Source: a virus (lineage: Duplodnaviria; Caudoviricetes). From it: 64,000 nt of DNA. The notes beneath the pieces are model-generated. The model was not told where the DNA came from. It was given only the letters and a program-made list of their open reading frames with translations, and did not search any database. Location of the stretch: IMG/VR virus record IMGVR_UViG_3300035505_000178; one strand, 5' to 3'. The position numbers and the translations under genes are program-made. Shown here piece after piece: positions 5,256-53,308 of the stretch; position 1 is the stretch's first letter, and each line of letters begins with the position of its first letter.

Positions 5256-8200
5256 TTACTCTTTAGCGCGAAGAATAAATGAACGATATGGATTGAATAC
5301 TGCGATACCGCAAGTACCCCATATAGTCATCATACTTCCTGCAACTGGAGATGAAACAACTCCAGAAGACTTACCGTCACGACCACCTACACCAAGAACT
5401 TCATTGAATACATAGTCGCAACCCTTCAAACTAAACATCTGAATAGGTGGCTGTGCAGAAGTCTTACCAGTAGTTAAGTCAAGACAGAGAGCGAAAGGCT
5501 CTGGATATTCACGTGACAATGTTCTGTCAACCTTGAATACAATTGTATTAGAACCCCATGTATAAGCATCAAATGTAGCACCTACATTAATATACTTACC
5601 TTTACCACCCTTAGACCAGATGTAAGCCTCATCAGTCTTGCGATTAGACAAGTAATTACCAAGTACATTCTGTACAATACCCCACATTCTTTCATTTACC
5701 ATGAATGTGAATACGTTACCCTCAGGATTCTCAGCCTTCTCAACCATAGTACTGATGATTTGCTGGAATGTCTGAATAGTAATCTTATTTGCAGAATATT
5801 TAGATGCGAATCTCTCAACCTGAGGAATAACACCGTCACCAATCTCAATTGGACGACCTGTAGCACGATCAGCAAGTGTAGACTTACCATCAACACCCAT
5901 AGTACCACGTGCCATAAGCATCATATTCTCACGTTGATATAAGAAGTTCTCGATGAGGTTCTTCTTCATAGGCTCAAGACGATAAATAGTCTCAGTCAAG
6001 CAACCCTGATCCTTACCCTCACCAATTTTGATAAATGAATCTTCCATCAAAGCGTATTTTGCAGAGTATGAATCTTCAACACGAATAGTACTCATGTAGT
6101 TTCTCATACGCTCAATGTTAGATTGATATTTTACATAACCAGTCTCATGTAATTCTGGCTTAGCATTCATTTATGTTAGCTATATATTTCTATATAGATC
6201 AGACTATATCTTTTACGCATATTATTGCGAAAATAAACATTTCACTCAATGTATTTATAAACAAATCCTTTATAAGATTTACGAATATTTACCAAATTTT
6301 TATAAACGCCTTTTCCATTTTCTTTATAACATTCTGATGAATTTTTATAAACTTTAATTAAATTTCCATTTATATCGTATTTACCAATAGGTTGTTGAGA
6401 TACTTTTAAAGGTTTATTATAAACTTCATATTTTTGTAATCCCCAGAAATATCCAGATTTAGTAAGAGTTTTATGACGAATTGCTTGATTGATTCCATCA
6501 TTTTTAAACTCTTTTAATGCTTCTAGATAATTCCATTCTTTTAAAAAATTACCATTTGAATCGTATTGATAAATATTTCTATTTTTAACATATTCATCTC
6601 TTGCTTTAGAATATGAATCAGCTTTTACATAACAGAAATAATATTTTCCATCAACTAAATTTCCAAGTATTGCAGATTGAGATGCTTGTGAATATCCTGT
6701 TGCTCTATTCGAAGAAAATTCATTTAAATATTTTCCATCAACAGAGTATTGATAAATAACATTTTTAATTTGTTTTTTACTATATTCACTAAGATTAAGT
6801 TTTTTAACTTTGTCTTTACTCCAATAAAAATTAGCACAAGTCATATTAGACGAACAAGCGTCTGAAATACTTGATTGTTTTCTATCAACTGATAGAGCAG
6901 CTTCTTTAAAAGATTCGAAAGTTTTAATATAATTTCCTTCTAAATCATATTGATGTACTTCTTTAATTGGACAAGAACCTGGGGGAATTTGTCCTCCTAA
7001 AATCATATTATATACATCAGGACGTTTTAAAAAATCCTCATCTACTAATCTTTTTTCTTCTAAATAAGCTTCTTCTTCATTTTTATAAATTTGCAATACA
7101 CATCTATTAAAATTAGATGGACCATATTTTTTAACTGCACATTCAAATGCTGTTTTCCCGTACATATAAGTACTAGGACAATTATACATAATTCCACATC
7201 CTAAATAACCATCAAATTTAAAAGGGTCTTTTGTTTTGTGTACACCTATGTATATTTTGTTATTTATTAAATTTGTAGTTTGGTAAACTATCCAATACAT
7301 TTCGTTACGGCTTGCGCCTAGTCGTTGAACGTTATTATATTCTTCCATATAATCACTTAAATTATTTTAATGAATTTAAATATAATCTTCGCTGCTGATT
7401 AGCATGTCTTTCGATTTAGCTTTCCAGCAATTAATTTATTTTTACATCAGCAATACTATAATTATTTTACCGATGAAGTGGGTTAAAGCACCTTCATAGC
7501 AAGCATCCTTGTCAAGTACAGAAGAATAATCGTCATCAATCAAACGAACCATTACTGACCACATGTTATCAGCCAATCTAACAGGTCTAGATGTTACAAA
7601 ACATTGCTGACCTGACTCTTCAATCTTGAAGATCTCATGTTGCTGATACCAATTCTCTGTAAAGATCATTTCAATCTCTGAACCATTAGCTCCATCACCT
7701 TCTGGAACTGCTGCGAACGGAATACGTTTAATTTGGTTGGTTTCCAAAATTTAGACTATATCATTTATTTCTATGATATTTAAATATGTACTCACCAAAG
7801 TACCTATCTCCCATCTCTATATTTTTAATTTTAGCAGATGGAACATTATATTTCTATCTTACTTCTTTTACAGAATTTAATGTTTCTATAAAATTACCAT
7901 ACTTATCATATATATCAACCTTTATTCCAAAAGTTCTTTCTGGAACTTTATCAATTTCTTCAAATGACATATAAAAGTCTTTATACCATCCTTGTTTATA
8001 TCTAAAAGCATCTCTAATTATTTCCCAAGAATGTTCAGATATGATGGACATTATTTCTTTACCTATCCCTTTTCCAATTAAATTGGAATCCTTATCATAA
8101 ACATAAATAAGAGTCTTAGCATATTGTTTTCGTGCTTTAGGAATATATTCATCTACCATTGAATCAGACACATAGTAGCTATTTAAAACTAAACTATTTT

Positions 8201-9623
8201 GTTTAACTGCTTTTGCTACTACTTCTTCTTTAGTTCCTATATATTCAGCACATTTTTTTCTAGATATAAACTCACCTAACCATTTACCATCTTTATTATA
8301 AAGATGTGTAACTTTAGGTTCTCCCCAAGGTTTTGAACTACATTCTGATATATTTATAGTTTCAGTTGAAGCCCATAAAGAATCTAATAATGGATGTTTA
8401 TCATGAATTGCATATTCAAATTTCTCCATAGGTAAATTATAAAAGTCATAAGCCTCTTTAGAAAATTCCCATTTCTTTTTTAAATTTCCTTTTAAATCAA
8501 ACTGATATAGAGGTTTATACATATTATAACATTTTCCACCTAAACATGCATTATATACATGACTTAATTTTATAAAATTTATATCCACGATTTCTTTTTC
8601 TTTTAAATAAGCTTCATTTTCATTATCATAAATATATAAAATACTTCGTTCAAAAGAATTAGTTCCATACTTTTTTACAGCATACTAAAATGGGGTTTTA
8701 GGATACATATAAGTACTAGGTTGTTGAATATACACTCCACATCCAATATATCCATCAAATATTTCTGGATTTTTTGTTTTATGTACTCCAACATAAATTT
8801 TATTAATTCCGTTAATTTTAGATTTTAAATTTTTTGTAAGATAGACAATATATTTCATGAAATAATTCAATTTTTTAATTATATAAAATAATTTACGGGT
8901 CTCCCCTAGTCGTTGAACACTGCTGTCATCACAGCCATGCTGCTGATAATCATATAGACTTCCCAGCAATTTAAAGAATTTATATGGAGGTCAAAACCAA
9001 CAGAAATATCTAACCTCCCACTCGAAGTAGTTAGAGTCAATAGGCTGGTATGTATTAGCCTTCTTTGTCTCACCGTAATAAACGTTTCGAAGTGCTTCTG
9101 TAAAATATGTCAATGTTAATTGTGGGTACAAACGTGAAATTACACCAAGACGGTGAGGCTTGCTACCCATGAATTTATTAAAATCTTCGTAAGTACGAGT
9201 ATCCATTTGTTATCCGTAAGGCTCTTTATCCTTACGTTCTATTAATTTCTTAATAGTTCGGACTATATCATCATCATTTAAGATGTTGGGCGCTCGTGTC
9301 AGTATTATATTCTATAAGGAGGTTGTGGACCTCTTAAATCAAAATCCCAAATCATTGCAGCTATTGTCCAACCAGGGATGGGAATCATCATCAATAACCA
9401 AAATATAGGAATTTGAATTAAATACCATAAATATTTAAAATAGTATGTCATAGTTTCAACTGTTAGTCTCTGAGCCTTCACACTTTGTTAAAGGTGTGCT
9501 TGGCTGCTGATTACCATTTCAAGCTTCCAGCAATTCACCCAATTTGCATTTAATTATCACTAATTAAAGGGGCAATACTTTACCCATCGTACTTCTGTTA
9601 GTTACGAAATTTGCTACAAGCAT
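5256..9623 (-). CDS. major capsid protein, 473 aa, spliced: join(9623-9582, 9203-9012, 7744-7469, 6167-5256)
   Basis: exons give MLVANFVTNRSTMG|DTRTYEDF...FEWEV|ETNQIKRIPF...THFIG|NAKPELHETG...; every junction is in frame, follows an exon U and ends at an intron G; crAss-like MCP sequence and size. Confidence 0.9.
6168..7468 (-). mobile_element. group I intron 3 of MCP (1301 nt) with homing endonuclease
   Basis: P1 CATCGGT/GCTGATG with U-G at 5' splice site; TGCTGGAAA, AATCAGCAG, CAACGACTA and AAGATATAGTC core elements; P9 CTATATA-GAAA-TATATAG; terminal G at 6168. Confidence 0.9.
6242..7300 (-). CDS. GIY-YIG homing endonuclease with NUMOD1-like repeats, 352 aa
   Basis: MYWIVYQTTNLINNKIYIGVHKT...YLGCG...YNMILGG; repeated [VI]xQYDxxGN[FY][IL]K units. 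Confidence 0.85.
   Translation of the reverse strand: MYWIVYQTTNLINNKIYIGVHKTKDPFKFDGYLGCGIMYNCPSTYMYGKTAFECAVKKYGPSNFNRCVLQIYKNEEEAYLEEKRLVDEDFLKRPDVYNMILGGQIPPGSCPIKEVHQYDLEGNYIKTFESFKEAALSVDRKQSSISDACSSNMTCANFYWSKDKVKKLNLSEYSKKQIKNVIYQYSVDGKYLNEFSSNRATGYSQASQSAILGNLVDGKYYFCYVKADSYSKARDEYVKNRNIYQYDSNGNFLKEWNYLEALKEFKNDGINQAIRHKTLTKSGYFWGLQKYEVYNKPLKVSQQPIGKYDINGNLIKVYKNSSECYKENGKGVYKNLVNIRKSYKGFVYKYIE
7745..9011 (-). mobile_element. group I intron 2 of MCP (1267 nt) with homing endonuclease
   Basis: P1 GGAGGTT/GACCTCC; TGCTGGGAA, TATCAGCAG, CAACGACTA and TGATATAGTC core elements; terminal G at 7745. Confidence 0.85.
7761..8858 (-). CDS. GIY-YIG homing endonuclease, 365 aa, two in-frame TAG
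   Basis: MKYIVYLTKNLKSKINGINKIYVGVHKT...PKTPF(Q)YAVKKYG...; joins track ORFs 8685-8969 and 7854-8588; similar to intron 3 HEG. Confidence 0.85.
9204..9581 (-). mobile_element. group I intron 1 of MCP (378 nt)
   Basis: P1 GGGT/GCCC; TGCTGGAA, AATCAGCAG, CAGAGACTA and GATATAGTCC core elements; P9 hairpins; terminal G at 9204. Confidence 0.9.
9305..9451 (-). CDS. intron-encoded small hydrophobic protein, 48 aa
   Basis: MTYYFKYLWYLIQIPIFWLLMMIPIPGWTIAAMIWDFDLRGPQPPYRI; fills the peripheral insertion after P7. Confidence 0.55.
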   Translation of the reverse strand: MTYYFKYLWYLIQIPIFWLLMMIPIPGWTIAAMIWDFDLRGPQPPYRI

Positions 9624-20600: not shown

Positions 20601-22630
20601 TTAACTGCAACCGCTGTAGCATTACTACCTGCTGTTGGACCAGTAGATGCAGCTGTGTGGTTATACCAAGGCTTAATTAAACCTAAATAAGTATTAGTTG
20701 CTACGGAATATGTAGTGTTATTATCTGCTGGTAAAGTATAAGTGATATAACCTCCAGCTGTTATGTGTCCGTAAGAATCGACTTTATAATTAGGAACTAT
20801 AAATGTTCCGCTGTGAGATAATGTTGCATTAGCTGTTGGACCATACGTATTAGCAGTTACACCACTTGTATTATGATTAAATGTAGTACTTGATAAAGTT
20901 AAATAATTTCCTGCTGTGTAAGTAGTATTAGTATTCGTACTACTTATAGTGATTACTCCATTAGCATCACTTGTCACAGTAGTTGCACCTGTACCTTTTA
21001 TAAGATGAGCAGATTTTATAGATCCTGCTTCAATATGATTTAAATAAACAGCTCCATTACTTGCAGCTGCATTTGCAGTAGCTGTACTACTTGCTCCAAC
21101 TATTGTAGAACTTGCATAATGCGTATCTGTAAACACAGCATCAGAAGGAACAGATTTACTAAGAGTATAACTCATAGCTTTAGGAACTCCACCACTAAAG
21201 TATATACCTTGTGTTGAAGAACCTACACTTCCACTATATTGTTTAATAATTTTTCCTGATGTTCCATTAAACAAAGCAAAATATCCATCTGTAGAACTTG
21301 TTGGACCTACAACAGCTCCATCAATATTTGTCTAAGCTACAGTCCAATGAGCATTATTGATTGCTGTTTGTCCACTAGTTGCATCTGTAATACAAATGAT
21401 CAAATCTCCAACTTCACAAACAACTCCTGCATATGTACCTGCTGTAATTACTCTATAAGTCCAACCTGCAGAATATCCACTTGTAGGAAGTGATGTAATA
21501 GTACCACTTGTACCAATAGTTCCTTTAAATATCATTGCATCATTTGCTGCAAAACTAGCATCTACATAAGTTTTAATATCATAAGAAGTTGTGATACCTA
21601 AATTACTAGAAGATGCGTTAGATATTGAAACGATTTTAGGACTAATAGTTGCTGCCTAATTTGAAGTAGTTATTGTAAAATAGTTAGTATTTCCAGAAGC
21701 TATTGATTTTAAATAATCTGAATGACTATGACTAGCTGTTGCATAAGCTGAAGAATTTGTATAAGCAGCACTTCCTAAACCTTTAACCGAAACCTCAGCA
21801 GAAGTACCATTAGTATCTACAGAGATAGTACCATTTGTTGAACCTGTAGAGATACTACGTACTCCAGAATTATAAAAAGTTGTTCCAGATAATGTCAGAC
21901 CTGTTCCAGCAGAATACGTTGTATTAGTGGAAGTTATAACTAATTTACCTGATTCAGTACTAAATGAAACATTAGTTCCAGGAACTATGTTCAATGTTTT
22001 AGCTGTAGAACCGTCATATGTATATAAATTAGTTCCTTCTACAGTACCTGAATTTATTTTTAAAGTAAGAGCTGTAGGATTCTTTAAGCTTGTAGGTATT
22101 GTAGGATAAGCAGGTAAAGTAACTGTATTTCCACTTACTGGATATGAAGTTGAACCTACAACTACCGTACTAACATAATTATGTGTATGACTGGTGATTG
22201 TACCAGTTAATACAGCTTCAACCATTGCTTTAGTAATAGAAGTTAAAGCTGCAACCCAAGTAGCATCACCTCTCAAAAAATAAGTCTGTTCTCCAGCAGC
22301 AGGAGCAGGTACTAAGCCCGAAGTACCTGCTGCTGAAGATGATGCACCAGTAAAGGTGCTATATGTAGTGTTAGGAGGAGTAACCCAAGTTCCATCCTCC
22401 CTTAAGTATCTATTTGTGCTACCGCTATTATAATTAGGAATAGGTACTAATCCACTCAAGCCACTATCTGTAGAAGTTTGTTTTTGAAATATGCTATAAG
22501 TGGTATCTGTACCTTCTAATTTTACACCTTTAACATATAAACATTTTCCACTAAGATCAAAAATTAGATCTTCGGTGTTAGTAACACCTGTTAAAGGGCT
22601 TTTATCACGTGGATTATAACTTATTCTCAT
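17636..22630 (-). CDS. long tail fibre protein, 1664 aa (TAG=Gln)
   Basis: five track ORFs share one frame; Thr/Ser/Gly-rich, YLRxDxTW, YLPLxGGTM, ARTIWGQSFNGSANV and WxRxxGxxGWY repeats; TAA at 17636. Confidence 0.85.
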
Positions 22631-22634
22631 TTAA

Positions 22635-23807
22635 TTATTCATATTCATAAGCACTAGTACTTACATTGTACCAGCACAATTCAAAACTTAAGTCTTCTGT
22701 ATCTGTAGATAAAGTATGTTTAACACCAATACTGCCACTAGGAACAAAATTTAACTTAGCACTACCAATATCAGTACCATTAATACTAATAGGACGCCAA
22801 GTATTTTCTGCAGCAGGATCATACTTTAACGCATTAATAATGTTCTACGCAGTCAAATAAATATTTCCATCTGAATCAACAGAAATTGTTTTATTAGTAG
22901 AACTTTTATCTATAATTACTCCACCTAAAGTACTGTTAGTTGCTTTACCCAAACTTACTGTAACAGCCGTACTACCATTATAAGTAGTTGCTGTACCAAC
23001 TAATCCAGTTCCAATAGTTAAAGCGTTTGCAACACTAGAAGCTGTACCAACAGATACACTAGAAGAAGTAACCCAAGTAGGAGCAGAACTCTTACCATTA
23101 CTAACTAAAATCTATCCTTGTGTACCACCACTAGTAGGAGCATAAATATTAAAAGTAGTTGATAAATCTGTAGAATAAGTATTAATAGCTACATTATTTA
23201 CATAATGAGTAACATAACCATTAATGTTAGATTCTACAACAGTCCAATAAGTAGAATCATTAAGATCACTACCACTACCATCCTTTATACAAATTAACAA
23301 ATCTCCGTTAGAACATTTCTGTCCTGCAACTGTTTGTGTAGTAGATGATACAAATCTATAAGTATCACCAACCTCACAATTAGTTGGAAATCCAGAAACT
23401 GAACCTACTGAAGTATTAGTCTAAAAGGCACCACCTGTATATTCAATAGTACCCTTGTAACGCATAGCATCATTAGCTGAAAAACTTGCATTTACAAGAG
23501 AATGTACCTACGCAGAATTTAAAATTTTATCAGTAGCTGATACACTATAAGTATCTGCTATAGGAAGATCTGATGTTGTAATTGCTGCCCAAGTATTGTT
23601 ACCTCTTAAGAAATCAGTAGTTTTACCTGTTGACTAACTAACTAAGCCTCTACTAGAAGCAGAGAAAAGCGAGGTAAAATCAGTACCGTGTGTTAATATG
23701 TGTCCATCTTTTGTGAAATAGAGTTTCACATAGTCACTGTCAGACGAGGTTAAGCCAAGTTTACTTTTTATCTCGTCATACGTATTCGCAAAATTAAGTA
23801 TTGCCAT
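22635..23807 (-). CDS. tail fibre-related protein, 390 aa (TAG=Gln)
   Basis: shares the ANDAMx[YF]KGT...GDL[IL]ICI.D...WTV module with the downstream fibre. Confidence 0.7.
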
Positions 23808-28700: not shown

Positions 28701-31700
28701 TTCCAGATAAGAATGTTTTCTTGATGTTTGCTAATGCAACAGCTATACCTTTACTACTAGTTGTACCAGCTAAAGTATATATATTTAATGCTGCCCAAGA
28801 ACCATTATCGTATTCTGTTCCTGCAGGAACCCATTTACTATTTACATGATCGTATCTATAAATATCACCAATCTTGTGACTAGACAAGTTGCCTGTACCA
28901 TCAGGATTAAATGTATTATTAGTTACAATATATTTAAATTCTTCCTTCCAATTATTTGGTGTATTATCAGAAGTTTGAATCATAGTAAAATCATACTTAT
29001 AAACGAAATCGTAGAACTCTCTAAATTTCTTTACTGTTTCGTAAACATCTTCTGTGAATGCTGTACCAGCATCGTTAATACCATAATCAATATCAAGAGA
29101 ACCTCTCAAATTGTAGTAGATAGATTCATCATTAATATAAAGATTATTATAAGGATATAACAACGAATCTGCAGAAGAAATAGTAGGAGCTGATGTAAGT
29201 TTATAATTATTAGGATCATCAGGAGAACCTTCTGCTCTTTGCAATGCTTGCCAAGGTACAATAAAGTTTGCAGCAGGATCGTTATTCTCACCACCCTCAA
29301 TTAATAAATAACCAGGAGTTTCAGAACTAGAATAACCGAATGTTGCATTATCACCTTTAGCTGCACCCCAAGTTTGGAATCCCATAAATTTAACATCCGA
29401 ATCATTAGCAAGAATATCAGCAAGTTCTACATCTTGTACATCTTCTAAATCAGTTTCCCAATAGAAATATAAAAATGGCTCTTCGTGTACAGCCTTACGA
29501 CCACCAGTTATCAAAGAGCTACTTACTTTATTCTTATAAGCATCATCGTATAATTTACAAGCACCAACCTTATGTGATTGCATTGAAGAAGCATAATTAA
29601 CTTTACCAACCAACTTAGTTATCTTTTCCTCAGACTGATCAACTTGACCGTCATATGGAGGCATAACATAATAACCAGTTGTAGCAGGTGCATCCTCAAC
29701 AAATTTGTTTGTAGTCTTATCAAGATATTCATAAGGAGTAAATAAACTCTTTTTATCACCATTCTTATTCTTAATCTTGTTAAGTTGATATGCTACGTTC
29801 CAAATCCAGTAACGCATCGCAGAAGAACCTTGTCCTTTAACTAAACCACATGTTAATCGTCCACCATAAGTCTTATTATAATTCTCATCACTGTAATTAA
29901 CAAAAAGAGTTACAGGTTTAGTTTTCTGATCAAAGTCTGGAGATCCATCTTTACCACCCCAAGTTCTTGAAGGGAATCTACCACCAGTTGGGAATACATA
30001 TACTAAGGTATTATATTTCTCAACAGCTTTTGTAAATGATATTTCTCCATTAGAACCTAATATATCATTATTGTCGTAGAATGTTTGTTTGTCTGCTTTC
30101 TTCAATAAGAAAGAAATATAATTTTGTTTAACTTGATCAAAAGTTAAAGCTATATTATTATATACTCTAAATAAATAAAAATCAATATCAGCAGTAGTAG
30201 GATTTACTTGAAGTGCTGCATTTGATAAAGCTGTTAATTCAGCATTAGTTAATGCAATCTCTCTATCAATAACACCATTGATGTAAACACGAACTAAGTT
30301 GATTGTAGTATTAGAACTCAAGAATTTAGATTCACTATCATACAAATAATAAGGATAATATATTTCTCCTTCTTGTATAGAATAGTTTCCTTGAATTGTA
30401 ATTAAAATATGAATCTCTTTATCCTCTTCAAACTAAGAATTTCTAGCTGTGAACGTATCATTAGTATCATCACCAGTATCCCAACAAATCTAAGTAGGAC
30501 GCAATTGGAACTTACCAAATGTTAAGACAGGTTTTGTTTCATCACTAATGTTGTAAGTTTTAAATGCCATCTCAATAGTGCTAAGATTAGTTAAACCTAA
30601 AGAGATAGGATTAATTAAAACTTCTTCAGAAGAAGCAGGAACTCTAAATATAGTTCTACCTGATTCCTCAGTCCATCCATCTAAATTTGTAGTTTTAGGA
30701 TTAGAATCAGAAGCATAATCTGCTGTAACGAATACATCATTTAAATATCCTGTATTCTAATCAAAGTTAAGAGAAGGACTCACATCTTGATAGTAAATAA
30801 AATTACGATTTACAGCTTCAACAGATAATTGTTTGTGATCGTATCCGTAAATCTCATCATCATCTACTTCATAAAACTCATAAAAATTATCATCAATCTT
30901 TATAAATAAATACTTAGTAGAATCATTACTATTAATTTCTATATACTTAGAATAAGATGTAGTATATGTATTTCTGTCATCATAAGATTGTGCAGAAACT
31001 ATTTCATACTTCATAATCTCAGTAGGATTATTAGTTTGATAATCCTCAAGATAAGTTGTAATAGCTACTGATTCCTTATTCGGACTATACACAGTTAATT
31101 CATATAATTGAGATACACCATTATTAGAAATCTCCGAATTAACATTATTAATTGCAACTACACTTTCTGTACAATCTACTGTATAAATAACATCTACAGC
31201 TAAATAATCAGTGTAGATAGAACTATCAGTATTACGTACAGCTTTAACAACTAACTTATTTAAACCTGAGCTTAATTTAGTATAAGATACTGTATCACTT
31301 TTAATTGCAACACCGTTATTGAAACCTTCAATATGATAGTCACTAGCAGTTGCTCCAACTAAAGAGAAAGTAATCTAGTTGTTATTTAAAATTGTAGTTC
31401 CGTTATATTGTATATCTATAATCTCTGTTGTAATAGGTAAATCTAACGAATAACTTACAGACTCATCTGCAACTAACTAAGCAGTAATAGTTTCTCCTAT
31501 CTGAGATTTTTTAAATAACTTAGTTATATCAATCCAAGCTAATTTATCTTTATCTAAGACTGAACTAATTTCTCCTGTAGAAGAATCAATTACACAGTCT
31601 TCATAATCAAGATTCTTAACCTTTAGAACTTCAGATTGAGTACCATAAGTAAATTTTACTTCGAAAGGTCCAATTCTATTAGATTGTGAAGTAGTTACAG

Positions 31701-49400: not shown

Positions 49401-51053
49401 ATGACAAAACTTATAAAGAGATACTAGCAAGGAGGGGTCAATGAATATACTATATAGCCTGGCGACAATTTAAGTATAATTGCAAAAAATAACAATGTTA
49501 AATTAAACGATTTAATAAGTCTTAATAATATATAGGATCGCAATTTTATAAGAGTTGGACAAAAATTAAAACTTCCTCAATCGGTAAAAAAGTTTAATGA
49601 TTAGACTACTACTGAATATATTATACAGCCAGGTGATAATTTAAGTACGATTGCTAAGAACAACAATGTTAATTTAGATGATTTAATACGTCTTAATGGT
49701 ATACAAAACACCAATCTTATTGGAGTTGGTTAGAAATTAAAAATTCCTCAATATAAACCTACTTATTAGGTAAGAAGTTTTAATGATATTTAGTAGATAG
49801 AATCTAATTTAAATTAGAAAAGTGATATTGATATTATTAATACTTATCATGCAACTAAATAGGATAATACTCCTTATATAATAGACGATAAGAAGAACAA
49901 TAAACTAAATGTATATATTAATGGAAAATTGATTAAATCGTTTAATGCTATACATGGAAAATATTCTAATTCTTTTGGAAATACTTATAATAAAAAAACA
50001 AAAACTGGATATTAGCAAACTGATATTGATCCAGATGAAATGACTATAACCTATGTTGATAGTAAAGGAAATATAAAGAATTTAGCTGGTAATCTTACAA
50101 CTCCTGCAGGAATATACTTCTCTAGTAGAAGTAATAACTATCATGGAGCACCTTCTTATATAAGAAGAACTCAACAACAGATAGATTCTAAAAATAATTT
50201 AGGTATTCCATCATCTATACATGCAAGAACTATAAGAGAAGGCGCTAATACTAATGGGTGTACTGGATTATCTAATGAAGACTTACATAAGTTATCTAAG
50301 CTATTAGATGGATATGATAATGTTCCAACTTATATTCTTCCTTCTAATCCACAGAATAGATTTATGATTAGAAATGGATAGCTTTAGTTTAATTCACATG
50401 ATGCTAGTAAAACACCAAATCATTTTACTATAGACTATTCTCCTATTAAGTCAATTAAGTATTCTGCTACAGGATTAGATTCACATTAGAGAGAAGTATA
50501 TAGTGGATTCTCTAAAGGATTAATGCAAAATAAGACTAATCTTTAGAAAGATTTAGGTATTAATAATGATACTTATATACAATTATCTTAGGCTGCGTTA
50601 GGTATATTAGGAGCTGAATCTTAGTATGGATAGAAACATAGTCCTCTTATGAATTTCGCAAGAGCTGCTCATAAATTTATCTCTCATAATAATAGTTCTC
50701 CAGATATTTATAGTAAATATACTACATACGGAGCTAATAAAGATAATAATTCTATAGGATTGACTTAGATACGTTTAAAACGAGAAGAAAATGGTAAATT
50801 AGTAGATAATTTATCTGAAAGATCTAAAGCTCTATTTAAAAAGTATAATATTACAAAAGATGATTTAGTGAATAGTCCAGAAAAAGCAGCTATTGCTACT
50901 ATGATAATATTGGGAGATAATTATTTAAATAGAGGTAGGACAGTTTAGAAAGCTGTTGCTTCTTGGAATCCAAGATAGAATTATTACGATAGAGTAATGA
51001 ATAATTCTAAAAGAGCAGTATTCAGTTAGAATTATCTTAATTTTAAAACATAA
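49401..51053 (+). CDS. LysM-LysM / L,D-transpeptidase (YkuD)-like / SLT-like peptidoglycan enzyme, 550 aa (TAG=Gln)
   Basis: two Y.I(Q)PGDNLS.IAK.N LysM repeats; TTPAGIY...IH...TNGC; GILGAES(Q)YG...GLT(Q)I...PEKAAIAT. Confidence 0.75.
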
Positions 51054-51983: not shown

Positions 51984-52025
51984 ATAAAAGGCGACTTCCA
52001 ATTAAGGGAGCCGCCTTTTATTTTT
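51982..52025. terminator. bidirectional terminator
   Basis: AATAAAAGGCGACTTCC...GGGAGCCGCCTTTTATTTTT between convergent genes. Confidence 0.7.
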
Positions 52026-52146
52026 ACCAAGATGTGCTTAATTTATTTAATTCATCTAAGAAATCTAAAGTTATTTGTTCATTTTCTAAATTATTTTCAA
52101 ATATTTTATTTATAAGAGTTTTAGTTTGCAATAAAACATCTGACAT
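52024..52146 (-). CDS. small hypothetical protein, 40 aa
   Basis: MSDVLLQTKTLINKIFENN...; ends at the terminator. Confidence 0.45.
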   Translation of the reverse strand: MSDVLLQTKTLINKIFENNLENEQITLDFLDELNKLSTSW

Positions 52147-52153
52147 TTCTTCT

Positions 52154-52456
52154 TTAATTTTGTCTAACGAATGATTCATAATCTTTTATTACATTTTTAA
52201 GTTTTTCTAAAGTAGGATAAATACTTATTATAGTTTCCCCTCGGTCATTCTTATAAAAGTACTTTTTAATTTCTTCTTCTGTTTCCTCTTTTTTTGTAAT
52301 CTGTTTCCAATAGATATAACACTCTTCTAATTTATCTTCTGAACATTCAGTTAAGATTTTTATATCTGGATTATTGATGATTTTGTTATATTTTCTTTTT
52401 AAATTAGAAACTTTAACTACATCGTTACCGTTTAATATTACTGCACATTTTTCCAT
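52154..52456 (-). CDS. hypothetical protein, 100 aa
   Basis: track ORF starting 2 nt after the tRNA 3' end. Confidence 0.6.
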   Translation of the reverse strand: MEKCAVILNGNDVVKVSNLKRKYNKIINNPDIKILTECSEDKLEECYIYWKQITKKEETEEEIKKYFYKNDRGETIISIYPTLEKLKNVIKDYESFVRQN

Positions 52457-52457
52457 G

Positions 52458-52758
52458 TTATCCCACTAGGATTCGAACCTAGACTAAAAGATTTCGTACT
52501 ACATTTACTTTCACATAAACTACCATATTATAAATAACTTAGGTATTGTAGTCTGGACTATTTCTTTACCATTTAAAAGGTATCCCCTGTATAGTCTCTA
52601 CGCCATTTATCCTTTAAAAGGAATTTAGTAAGCCATCGCCACATCTATTATTTCTAATAAAAAGGTTTCTGTTTATTAGGGGGAATTTTCAATATATATT
52701 TCTATATAAAGCTCCTGATTTTAAGAGTCTTCTGTGCTGACCATTACACCATAGGACA
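52458..52758 (-). tRNA. amber suppressor tRNA (Gln-type body, anticodon CUA), split by a group I intron: join(52758-52724, 52494-52458)
   Basis: spliced: TGTCCTA TG GTGTAATGGTCAGCAC A GAAGA CT CT^A AA TCTTT TAGT CTAGG TTCGAAT CCTAG TGGGATA A; full cloverleaf, U1-A72 pair, CCA not encoded. Confidence 0.9.
52495..52723 (-). mobile_element. ORF-less group I intron (229 nt) in the tRNA anticodon at position 35/36
   Basis: P1 CTCT/GGAG with U-G splice pair; P3 TCCCCCT/AGGGGA; P7 AGAGACTA and AAGAAATAGTCC; terminal G at 52495. Confidence 0.88.
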
Positions 52759-52764
52759 ATTATC

Positions 52765-52887
52765 TTATTTATTCTCTAACTTCTTTTTTAAATCTGCATT
52801 CTCTTTGGTAAGTTCTTCTATTTTATGTTGCATAGCTAACATCTCACTTCTGACATTAGCTAGCAACATTCTAATTTGCTCAAACAT
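52765..52887 (-). CDS. small coiled-coil protein, 40 aa
   Basis: MFEQIRMLLANVRSEMLAMQHKIEELTKENADLKKKLENK; stop 6 nt before the tRNA. Confidence 0.55.
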   Translation of the reverse strand: MFEQIRMLLANVRSEMLAMQHKIEELTKENADLKKKLENK

Positions 52888-53248
52888 ATTGAGTAAGTTG
52901 TTTAATCTTATTAGAAGCAACTACCTTCAAAGCCTCTTTAAATTTTAAAATTGAAAGTCGTTGTGATTCAATATCATCACTATCAAGACCTGTTTGAATA
53001 CGGTTAATTGTATCATTGCCTAACAAGTCACAAGTATCTACAAATAAATCATCATCTAACTGTTCTAAGAAATCCTGAAACTCTTCAGTTAAACTAGGAG
53101 CCTTTTCGATATGGATGCTTAGGGAGTTATCATCAGAATTAGCAGATATTACTAAATTACCAGCTTTAAGATTACACACTCCTTTTTGTTTTAATTCTTC
53201 GATGAGTCTATTACCAATATCCTCAGTCAATACACTTAAATTAATCAT
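52880..53248 (-). CDS. hypothetical protein, 122 aa
   Basis: track ORF, ATG at 53248 directly below the promoter motif. Confidence 0.65.
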   Translation of the reverse strand: MINLSVLTEDIGNRLIEELKQKGVCNLKAGNLVISANSDDNSLSIHIEKAPSLTEEFQDFLEQLDDDLFVDTCDLLGNDTINRIQTGLDSDDIESQRLSILKFKEALKVVASNKIKQLTQYV

Positions 53249-53308
53249 ATACAATAGTACACACGATTTTAGAAAAGTCCAAGTTAAAAATTGTTAAAAA
53301 TTGTTAAA
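53249..53308 (-). promoter_or_regulatory. Bacteroidota-type promoter with TTTAACAA repeats, driving the suppressor tRNA operon
   Basis: TTTAACAA TTTTTAACAA TTTTTAA CTTG-20 nt-TACTATTG. Confidence 0.55.

Follow-up and report, generated by a model that had tools for sequence, protein, structure and literature searches.

We analysed a 64,000-nucleotide (nt) stretch of DNA (the window) from a virus of the Caudoviricetes (Duplodnaviria; IMG/VR record IMGVR_UViG_3300035505_000178), in which a transfer RNA (tRNA) gene on the minus strand, at 52758-52458, is interrupted within its anticodon by a predicted group I intron. The features of the locus are listed in Table 1. The 35-nt 5' exon ends in GACUCU, the intervening 229-nt element begins with UAAAAUCAGGAGC and ends with GUAGUACG (minus strand, 52723-52495), and the 3' exon opens with AAAUCUUUU, contains a 4-nt variable loop and a T arm with GGUUCGAAUCC, and closes with discriminator A, CCA not being encoded. 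When the exons are joined in silico, ARAGORN calls a 73-nt tRNA(cta) with the anticodon CUA, split as CU^A, in the loop CUCUAAA. The spliced tRNA would thus form a canonical cloverleaf with the 7-nt loop, U33 and the purine at position 37 that are expected of an amber suppressor. An original prediction, made from the letters of the window, had described two tRNA halves with a U1-A72 pair around a 229-nt element and had proposed that the CUA anticodon exists only after intron removal between positions 35 and 36. Its coordinates, lengths, junction and U1-A72 pair all proved correct on the minus strand, and the ARAGORN call on the joined exons supports the proposed origin of the anticodon.

Table 1. 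Features of the split tRNA gene and its immediate surroundings (positions in the window).
Feature	Position	Strand	Description
5' exon, tRNA nt 1-35	52724..52758	-	acceptor 5' strand UGUCCUA, D arm, anticodon stem 5' strand GAAGA, loop C32 U33 C34 U35
Group I intron, 229 nt, without open reading frame, of the tRNA-Leu(UAA)-type tRNA intron family	52495..52723	-	RF00028 full-length alignment and covariation
Internal guide GGAG, intron nt 9-12	52712..52715	-	pairs with exon C32 U33 C34 U35 to give P1; U35.G9 wobble at the 5' splice site
P3 5' strand UCCCC, intron nt 40-44	52680..52684	-	pairs with 52583-52587
P7 5' strand GACUA in J6/7-P7 block GUAGAGACUAUA	52592..52596	-	invariant in 16 of 16; complementary to 52556-52560
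P3 3' strand GGGGA, intron nt 137-141	52583..52587	-	partner of 52680-52684
P7 3' strand UAGUC in J8/7-P7 block AAGAAAUAGUCCAGACUACAA	52556..52560	-	invariant block; pairs with 52592-52596
Terminal G (omega G), 3' splice site	52495..52495	-	invariant G in the 16-sequence alignment
3' exon, 37 nt	52458..52494	-	A36 A37 A38, anticodon stem 3' strand UCUUU, T arm, acceptor 3' strand UGGGAUA
Four small TAG-free open reading frames around the tRNA: 52880-53254, 52765-52920, 52154-52456, 52024-52179	52024..53254	-	code 11 open reading frame list

The group I hallmarks named in the original prediction, P1 (CUCU/GGAG with a U-G splice pair), P3, P7 and a terminal G, are all present, and they are backed by an alignment of homologues. 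This alignment comprises 16 distinct pre-tRNAs from GenBank phages and IMG/VR, the latter retrieved with the invariant 19-nt J8/7-P7-P9 block. The RNAalifold consensus fold contains P2, P3, P4, P5/P5a, P6, P8 and a three-way junction of P9/P9a/P9b; P7 was inserted into it by hand as the pseudoknot partner before pairs were scored. In the resulting structure 92.8% of cells pair, compared with 34-42% in controls with partners slid by 1-3 columns. Compensatory, both-sided changes occur in 48 of 65 pairs; in 500 shuffles, values as high as these never occurred. P3, a long-range helix, is paired in all 16 sequences (100%), with four of its five pairs covarying, and it is crossed by the invariant and complementary P7, generating the pseudoknot typical of group I introns. 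Covariation extends to P5a, P6, P8, P9a and P9b; P4 has only two resolved pairs, one of them with three pair types. In the acceptor stem, the two strands of which are separated by the intron, pairing is 100% and covariation extends to every one of the six scored pairs (positions 2-7), so that both halves must belong to one tRNA. The D and T stems covary as well, and all four tRNA stems are kept through compensatory changes across the homologues. Judged from this alignment, the combined intron and tRNA signal is far beyond chance.

We next consider the splice sites. The sole U.G pair available to P1 is U35.G9, formed between exon CUCU and intron GGAG. The guide varies in step with the exon, being GGAG for CUCU^ in CUA tRNAs and GAGU for ACUU^ in Leu-UAA tRNAs, and the 5' splice site is therefore fixed. 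At the other end, the terminal G at 52495 is the only choice that yields a 7-nt anticodon loop. Homologues of the CUA type have diverse anticodon stems (GAAGA/UCUUU, GUAGA/UCUAU, GGACA/UGUUU, GAGGU/ACCUU and CCCGG/CCGGG) around a constant loop, CUCU^AA(A/C). The megaphage Lak-B2 contains an intron-less tRNA, called Sup-CUA by ARAGORN, which is 82-85% identical to the spliced exons of two split homologues (L018 and L021) and reads GGTCTCT^AAAACC over the predicted junction. It thus shows the predicted ligated product, and for a sister tRNA the splice sites are in this way confirmed by a natural sequence. The Lak tRNA table lists 72-nt Sup CTA genes of ~63 bits with coordinates inside this Lak-B2 region (PMC6784885). 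By analogy, the junction of the window gene itself would read GACUCU^AAAUCU.

The unspliced gene is difficult to find with common tools. ARAGORN in default mode reports no tRNA in the whole 64-kb window, and the Rfam tRNA model RF00005 gives only a partial match to the unspliced gene (18.7 bits, below the threshold of 29). ARAGORN in intron mode does detect split genes of this type but imposes a canonical intron position, so that wrong anticodons are reported; we discarded its calls of Arg-acg, His-atg and Ser-cga at such genes.

A search of recoded phages for split CUA suppressors had been suggested in the original prediction. Homologous split tRNA(CUA) genes are present in the crAss-like phage cr115_1, in the Lak-B1, Lak-B3, Lak-B6 and Lak-B9 megaphages, and in ~17 IMG/VR contigs. 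The complete genome of cr115_1 (RefSeq NC_055898.1) has 7 in-frame TAGs in TerL, 12 in the portal gene and 80 in gp52, and none in polymerase, primase and helicase. ARAGORN finds only two Leu-UAA tRNAs, one Arg-UCU tRNA and a transfer-messenger RNA in this genome, and no intact CUA tRNA; the split CUA gene, unannotated in RefSeq, occupies 30533-30834 immediately upstream of TerL. TAG recoding is likewise seen in four IMG/VR contigs: G001 (165 kb and syntenic with the window), G002, G003 and the 180-kb G004, which is rated 100% complete. Scans over the full length of these four found one split CUA gene in each and no intact CUA tRNA. The split gene is thus the sole CUA tRNA found in five TAG-recoded genomes or contigs. 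In Lak-B1, ARAGORN resolved 29 tRNAs around 33 RF00005 hits, none with a CUA anticodon, and left four hits unresolved, of which three have an unusual length of 94-127 nt; as ARAGORN was applied to the surroundings of these hits alone, the check carries less weight than a scan of the whole genome would. Together, the silent ARAGORN default run, the subthreshold RF00005 match and the omission of the cr115_1 homologue from RefSeq bear out the expectation that split suppressors escape default annotation. The further suggestion that such genes account for recoded phages seemingly devoid of a suppressor holds for cr115_1 and G001-G004, which carry a split CUA gene only, and with less weight for Lak-B1.

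Other searches for members of the group were unproductive. In IMG/VR, the pattern CTCTTN{3,11}GGAGCTTTA had 120 matches, all of them by chance and none with a group I core; IMG/VR patterns based on the J6/7 block and on the 3' end returned no further CUA members; and no match was obtained when 20 kb of the window were compared with the phage collection by megablast. Among the known members, the tRNA(CUA) bodies interrupted by the intron are of at least five unrelated kinds, two of which have long variable arms. The latter, on the IMG/VR contigs L038 and L032, are type II bodies of 91-92 nt with the same CUCU^AAAA split and the same intron family, in L032 as a 681-nt version; if they are functional, TAG may be read there as an amino acid other than Gln. 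Two other IMG/VR contigs (L007, L016) contain CUA-type split tRNAs in which the last intron nt is A rather than G and the guide is GGACC rather than GGAGC, and these may be degenerate copies or copies with altered splicing. We also noted tRNA-like genes of 81-122 nt with enlarged anticodon regions in G003 (100453-100533) and G004 (22268-22389, 22720-22803 and 23234-23314), which score above the RF00005 threshold and are resolved by ARAGORN only with 'introns' of 8-38 nt.

The genomic setting indicates a need for TAG decoding. The window derives from a crAss-like gut phage, its TerL matching phrog_6681 at E=3e-67 and being 25-28% identical to Crassvirales TerL. Reading through TAG raises the content of long open reading frames (ORFs) from 3,478 to 11,435 amino acids, with a flat TGA control, and the TerL and portal genes, both identified by PHROGs, contain 16 and 19 in-frame TAGs, respectively. 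The split tRNA has late genes with in-frame TAGs on one side (up to 51754) and small genes free of TAG on the other (from 53658), in agreement with the border position assigned to it originally. To the right of 53.6 kb, the small plus-strand genes tile under the standard code; 6 of the 25 ORFs listed there end in TAG, 3 of these 6 having a back-up stop 3-6 codons further on. Small ORFs on the same strand flank the tRNA, which suggests a polycistronic transcript. These flanking ORFs have no Pfam or PHROG family match, and a sigma-70 promoter scan around the operon performed no better than on shuffled sequence, Bacteroidetes-type promoters being outside the models of the tool. The most heavily recoded gene near the suppressor (49401-51053, plus strand) has 22 in-frame TAGs; its 550-amino-acid product combines a YkuD L,D-transpeptidase domain with two LysM domains.

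The amino acid carried by the suppressor is likely Gln. The exons match annotated phage tRNA-Gln genes and the D-arm matches the tRNA-Gln(UUG) of the same phage, so that the description of a Gln-like body with a U1-A72 pair was sound. In crAss-like phages, reading of TAG as Gln has been shown by metaproteomics (PMC9523058). Based on the similarity of its body, the spliced tRNA would most likely be charged with Gln.

Elsewhere in the window, a second group I intron is located at 9239-9591 (minus strand; RF00028 76.3 bits, above threshold) between TAG-containing late ORFs. It adjoins an ORF at 7764-8990 (minus strand), which matches the homing endonuclease family phrog_314 (E=4.5e-15). Apart from this intron, no ribozyme family matches the window at the Rfam gathering score. 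The closest syntenic relative of the window contains a RAGATH-1 hammerhead ribozyme (L018:1110-1213, minus strand; RF03152 73.3 bits, above threshold), located 3.3 kb from its split suppressor.

The intron family of the window gene is found well beyond suppressor tRNAs. In phages it also interrupts tRNA-Leu(UAA), tRNA-Arg(UCU), tRNA-Lys(UUU) and tRNA-Ile(UAU), and some copies contain HNH-type ORFs. By this spread over phage sense tRNAs and by its HNH-type ORFs, the family behaves like a mobile element. The same 19-nt intron core that served to retrieve the IMG/VR homologues is present in 83 bacterial contigs (L260-L342), almost all of them from Bacteroidales and including a complete 3.3-Mb Bacteroidales chromosome (L317, OZ007033.1). 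In at least 53 of the 83, the core splits tRNA-Leu(UAA) between U34 and A35, with introns of 210-756 nt, and no CUA version was seen among the 83. As the family serves host tRNA-Leu genes, efficient constitutive splicing would be expected in that cytoplasm.

The window intron resembles known tRNA introns of bacteria and plastids. Its likeness to tRNA-Leu(UAA) introns is based on the Bacteroidales and phage copies, with which it has the core blocks GUAGAGACUAUA and AAGAAAUAGUCCAGACUACAA in common. Group I introns reportedly also interrupt tRNA-Leu(UAA) of cyanobacteria and plastids. This arrangement is alike in that a small group I intron lies within the anticodon and draws its P1 from the anticodon loop. 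In the window, however, the insertion is one nt further 3' (between U35 and A36 rather than U34 and A35), the guide is GGAG rather than GAGU, and the interrupted molecule is a nonsense suppressor rather than an essential sense tRNA. Azoarcus tRNA-Ile(CAU) and Agrobacterium tRNA-Arg(CCU) are likewise said to contain group I introns. They resemble the window intron as bacterial anticodon-loop introns of ~200-250 nt without an ORF and with a U before the splice site. As a further point of likeness, L2 bears a GAAA loop and P8 a CCUAAG...UAUGG receptor in several relatives. Here the tRNA and the insertion position are different and the P8 of the window intron is without the canonical receptor; the intron is described below as IC3-like.

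Taken together, we consider it likely that the gene encodes a tRNA-Gln-like amber suppressor interrupted between U35 and A36 by a small, ORF-less group I intron of tRNA-Leu(UAA)/IC3-like type, and that this intron is a selfish or neutral element, most likely spliced constitutively, which hides the suppressor from annotation. The precursor would be transcribed together with the flanking small TAG-free genes. The guide GGAG would pair with exon C32-U35 to form P1 with its U35.G wobble, guanosine would attack after U35, the terminal G (52495) would dock, and the exons would be ligated, generating the loop CUCUAAA with the anticodon CUA. Once its ends have been processed, CCA added and an amino acid, most likely Gln, attached, the tRNA could read the in-frame TAGs of the late genes, such as the 16 in TerL and 19 in portal. 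The intron itself would most likely represent a selfish or neutral member of the family common to Bacteroidales hosts and their phages, retargeted to CUCU^A loops. In practice, the suppressor stays hidden from annotation, which accounts for recoded phages 'without' a suppressor.

Several observations weigh against this interpretation. The group I model search proposed in the original prediction for 52495-52723 did yield an RF00028 alignment from end to end (26.6 bits, E=9.7e-5 in a local search), though below the gathering score of 50. A threshold search of 12 related loci, including Leu-UAA copies, similarly found none at threshold, so that RF00028 under-detects the whole subfamily. P1 is short, with four pairs followed by an A.C mismatch, and P10 is weak. 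The discriminator is A, as opposed to G73 in E. coli tRNA-Gln, which makes Gln charging uncertain, and relatives have Gln at 6 of 29 informative positions aligned to TAG compared with a background of 4.9%, a weak excess over few positions. Guanosine-dependent self-splicing with exon ligation is predicted for the window gene, for which splicing, junction and suppression are all read from sequence, and constitutive kinetics are suggested by the presence of the family in host tRNA-Leu genes.

A further difficulty is a second candidate tRNA(CUA) on the same contig. By exact protein matches, the window was located on a 99,465-bp contig of Logan run SRR11793880, where it takes up positions 24135-88134; the two are identical over the 10.4-kb overlap. 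Our tRNA examination of this contig beyond the window covered ~11 kb past the window end. In this part, ARAGORN calls an intron-less tRNA(CUA) at L347:11494-11565, ~10.4 kb past the window end, in a cluster of tRNAs (Gln-UUG, Leu-UAA, CUA, Glu-UUC, Asn-GUU, Leu-AAG and others). The split gene therefore cannot be called the only possible amber decoder here. An intact second suppressor had been named in the original prediction as a finding that would count against it, and the call on a contig 100% identical to the window where the two overlap may be such a gene. The called tRNA is atypical, with three U.U mismatches at helix ends, a single nt between acceptor and D stems and a 5-nt D loop; it has no RF00005 hit at E<=1 and no counterpart in G001-G004, and a sequence pattern for it finds nothing in IMG/VR. 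The 250-nt spacer before it is not a related intron by nhmmer with the family profile, which finds nothing. One could argue from the second call that the split gene is a decaying relic and that the tRNA of the cluster decodes TAG in this phage. We regard this as highly improbable, because none of the stems of the split gene is broken and its terminal G, U.G pair and invariant core blocks are all in place, and the alternative decoder is the tRNA with the aberrant helices and without homologues in G001-G004 or IMG/VR.

The original prediction went further and proposed a ribozyme-gated code switch, in which slow or conditional splicing, dependent on guanosine triphosphate, Mg2+ or folding, times the translation of the TAG-containing virion and lysis genes. 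Splicing is indeed logically required before the split tRNA can read TAG, the split gene is the only CUA tRNA found in five recoded relatives, and in cr115_1 it sits at the head of a TAG-rich block. The intron also persists without a homing endonuclease ORF in several divergent lineages. The natural variation among Lak-B phages points in another direction. In Lak-B2, Lak-B4, Lak-B5, Lak-B7 and Lak-B8, whose flanking sequences are 98.6-99.4% identical to those of Lak-B1, the locus of the split gene is occupied by a Sup-CUA gene without an intron, and the intron is therefore dispensable there. Other members of the family interrupt phage sense tRNAs and Bacteroidales tRNA-Leu(UAA), where a slow ribozyme would be costly, and no sequence element was found beyond the standard group I core. 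The genome of the window phage holds the second CUA candidate described above, and placing the tRNA in a TAG-free operon would be a simpler timing device. A rate-limiting role of splicing is thus an attractive but unsupported addition to a robustly supported anatomy, and we consider the gate improbable. The same low probability applies to the broader idea that the recurrent pairing of intron and tRNA(CUA) is adaptive. In that case, the recurrence of the intron across at least five unrelated tRNA bodies of crAss-like and Lak phages, for the most part with no homing endonuclease, would mean that ribozyme folding or guanosine-dependent splicing delays or tunes the suppressor, an RNA-processing-level switch of TAG from stop to Gln.

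The Lak-B locus suggests a second alternative. Two cassettes alternate at this position, either the split tRNA(CUA) (Lak-B1, L001:1500-1818) or a GIY-YIG gene with an intron-less tRNA(CUA) (Lak-B2, Lak-B4, Lak-B5, Lak-B7 and Lak-B8). In Lak-B2, the free-standing GIY-YIG gene (L045:531-1292; PF01541, E=2.8e-8; 8 in-frame TAGs) is followed by the tRNA(CUA) at L045:1316-1388, the body of which is different from that of the Lak-B1 split tRNA. The intron may thus interrupt the target of homing endonucleases that cut tRNA(CUA), with intron-containing and endonuclease-linked intron-less cassettes competing for the locus. Such a genetic conflict would be consistent with how group I introns and free-standing endonucleases are known to behave in T-even phages, and it is in line with the HNH-type ORFs of family members in other tRNAs and with the 681-nt version in the CUA tRNA of L032. 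The GIY-YIG enzyme is, however, only a candidate for cutting tRNA(CUA), the different tRNA bodies of the two cassettes leave simple homing into an empty site uncertain, and Pfam and PHROG scans of the neighbouring ORFs found no endonuclease near the intron of the window itself. We consider this conflict unlikely and favour a selfish or neutral intron that is spliced constitutively.

Our analysis can be compared with described phage and eukaryotic suppressors. Some recoded crAss-like genomes have clear TAG or TGA reassignment and no detectable suppressor tRNA (PMC7886860, PMC12386605), for which the same studies suggest host suppressors or very divergent tRNAs. The suppressor tRNAs described for TAG-recoded crAss-like and Lak phages (PMC7886860, bioRxiv 10.1101/2021.08.26.457843, PMC6784885, PMC9523058) agree with the window gene in being Sup-CUA, in accompanying in-frame TAGs in late genes and in having a tRNA-Gln-like body. 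They are continuous and found by tRNAscan-SE, whereas the window gene goes undetected, its anticodon being interrupted by a ribozyme. 'Enigmatic' introns have been predicted, with eukaryotic-type positions, in Lak tRNAs for Tyr, Thr, Phe and Gly (PMC6784885). These are likewise introns in phage tRNA genes, and Lak-B1, Lak-B3, Lak-B6 and Lak-B9 carry a homologue of the window gene. That paper does not identify the introns as group I, its methods mention an Rfam test only, and the split CUA gene at ~412 kb in Lak-B1 is not among the table entries examined. We rejected the 'tRNA-Tyr(GTA) with intron' of the same source as the split CUA locus, since coordinates and intron length differ.

Nonsense suppressors that require splicing are known from yeast, where the tyrosine suppressor tRNAs SUP4 and SUP6 contain an intron spliced by protein enzymes. 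Both systems thus depend on splicing before the suppressor can function, but the yeast intron follows position 37, leaves the anticodon intact and is removed by proteins, whereas here a ribozyme lies within the anticodon. In full-text literature searches, with most subscription journals outside their coverage, no account of a suppressor tRNA with a group I intron came to light, in keeping with the original prediction, the author of which knew of none. A group I intron that splits the anticodon of an amber suppressor in recoded phages appears to be undescribed.

For the TAG-recoded genomes examined here, such as cr115_1, our findings offer a concrete and checkable answer to the 'missing' suppressors: the suppressor is there, but its gene, interrupted by a group I intron, is passed over by tRNAscan-type tools and by RefSeq annotation. 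Annotation pipelines for alternatively coded phages should add a search for split tRNAs. In the Lak-B megaphages, a formerly unannotated intron-containing tRNA gene can now be read as a group I-split amber suppressor, and Lak-B1 and Lak-B2 represent a natural pair of intron-containing and intron-less suppressor alleles with which the question of timing may be addressed. More generally, the split suppressor is linked to an intron family common to Bacteroidales hosts and their phages.

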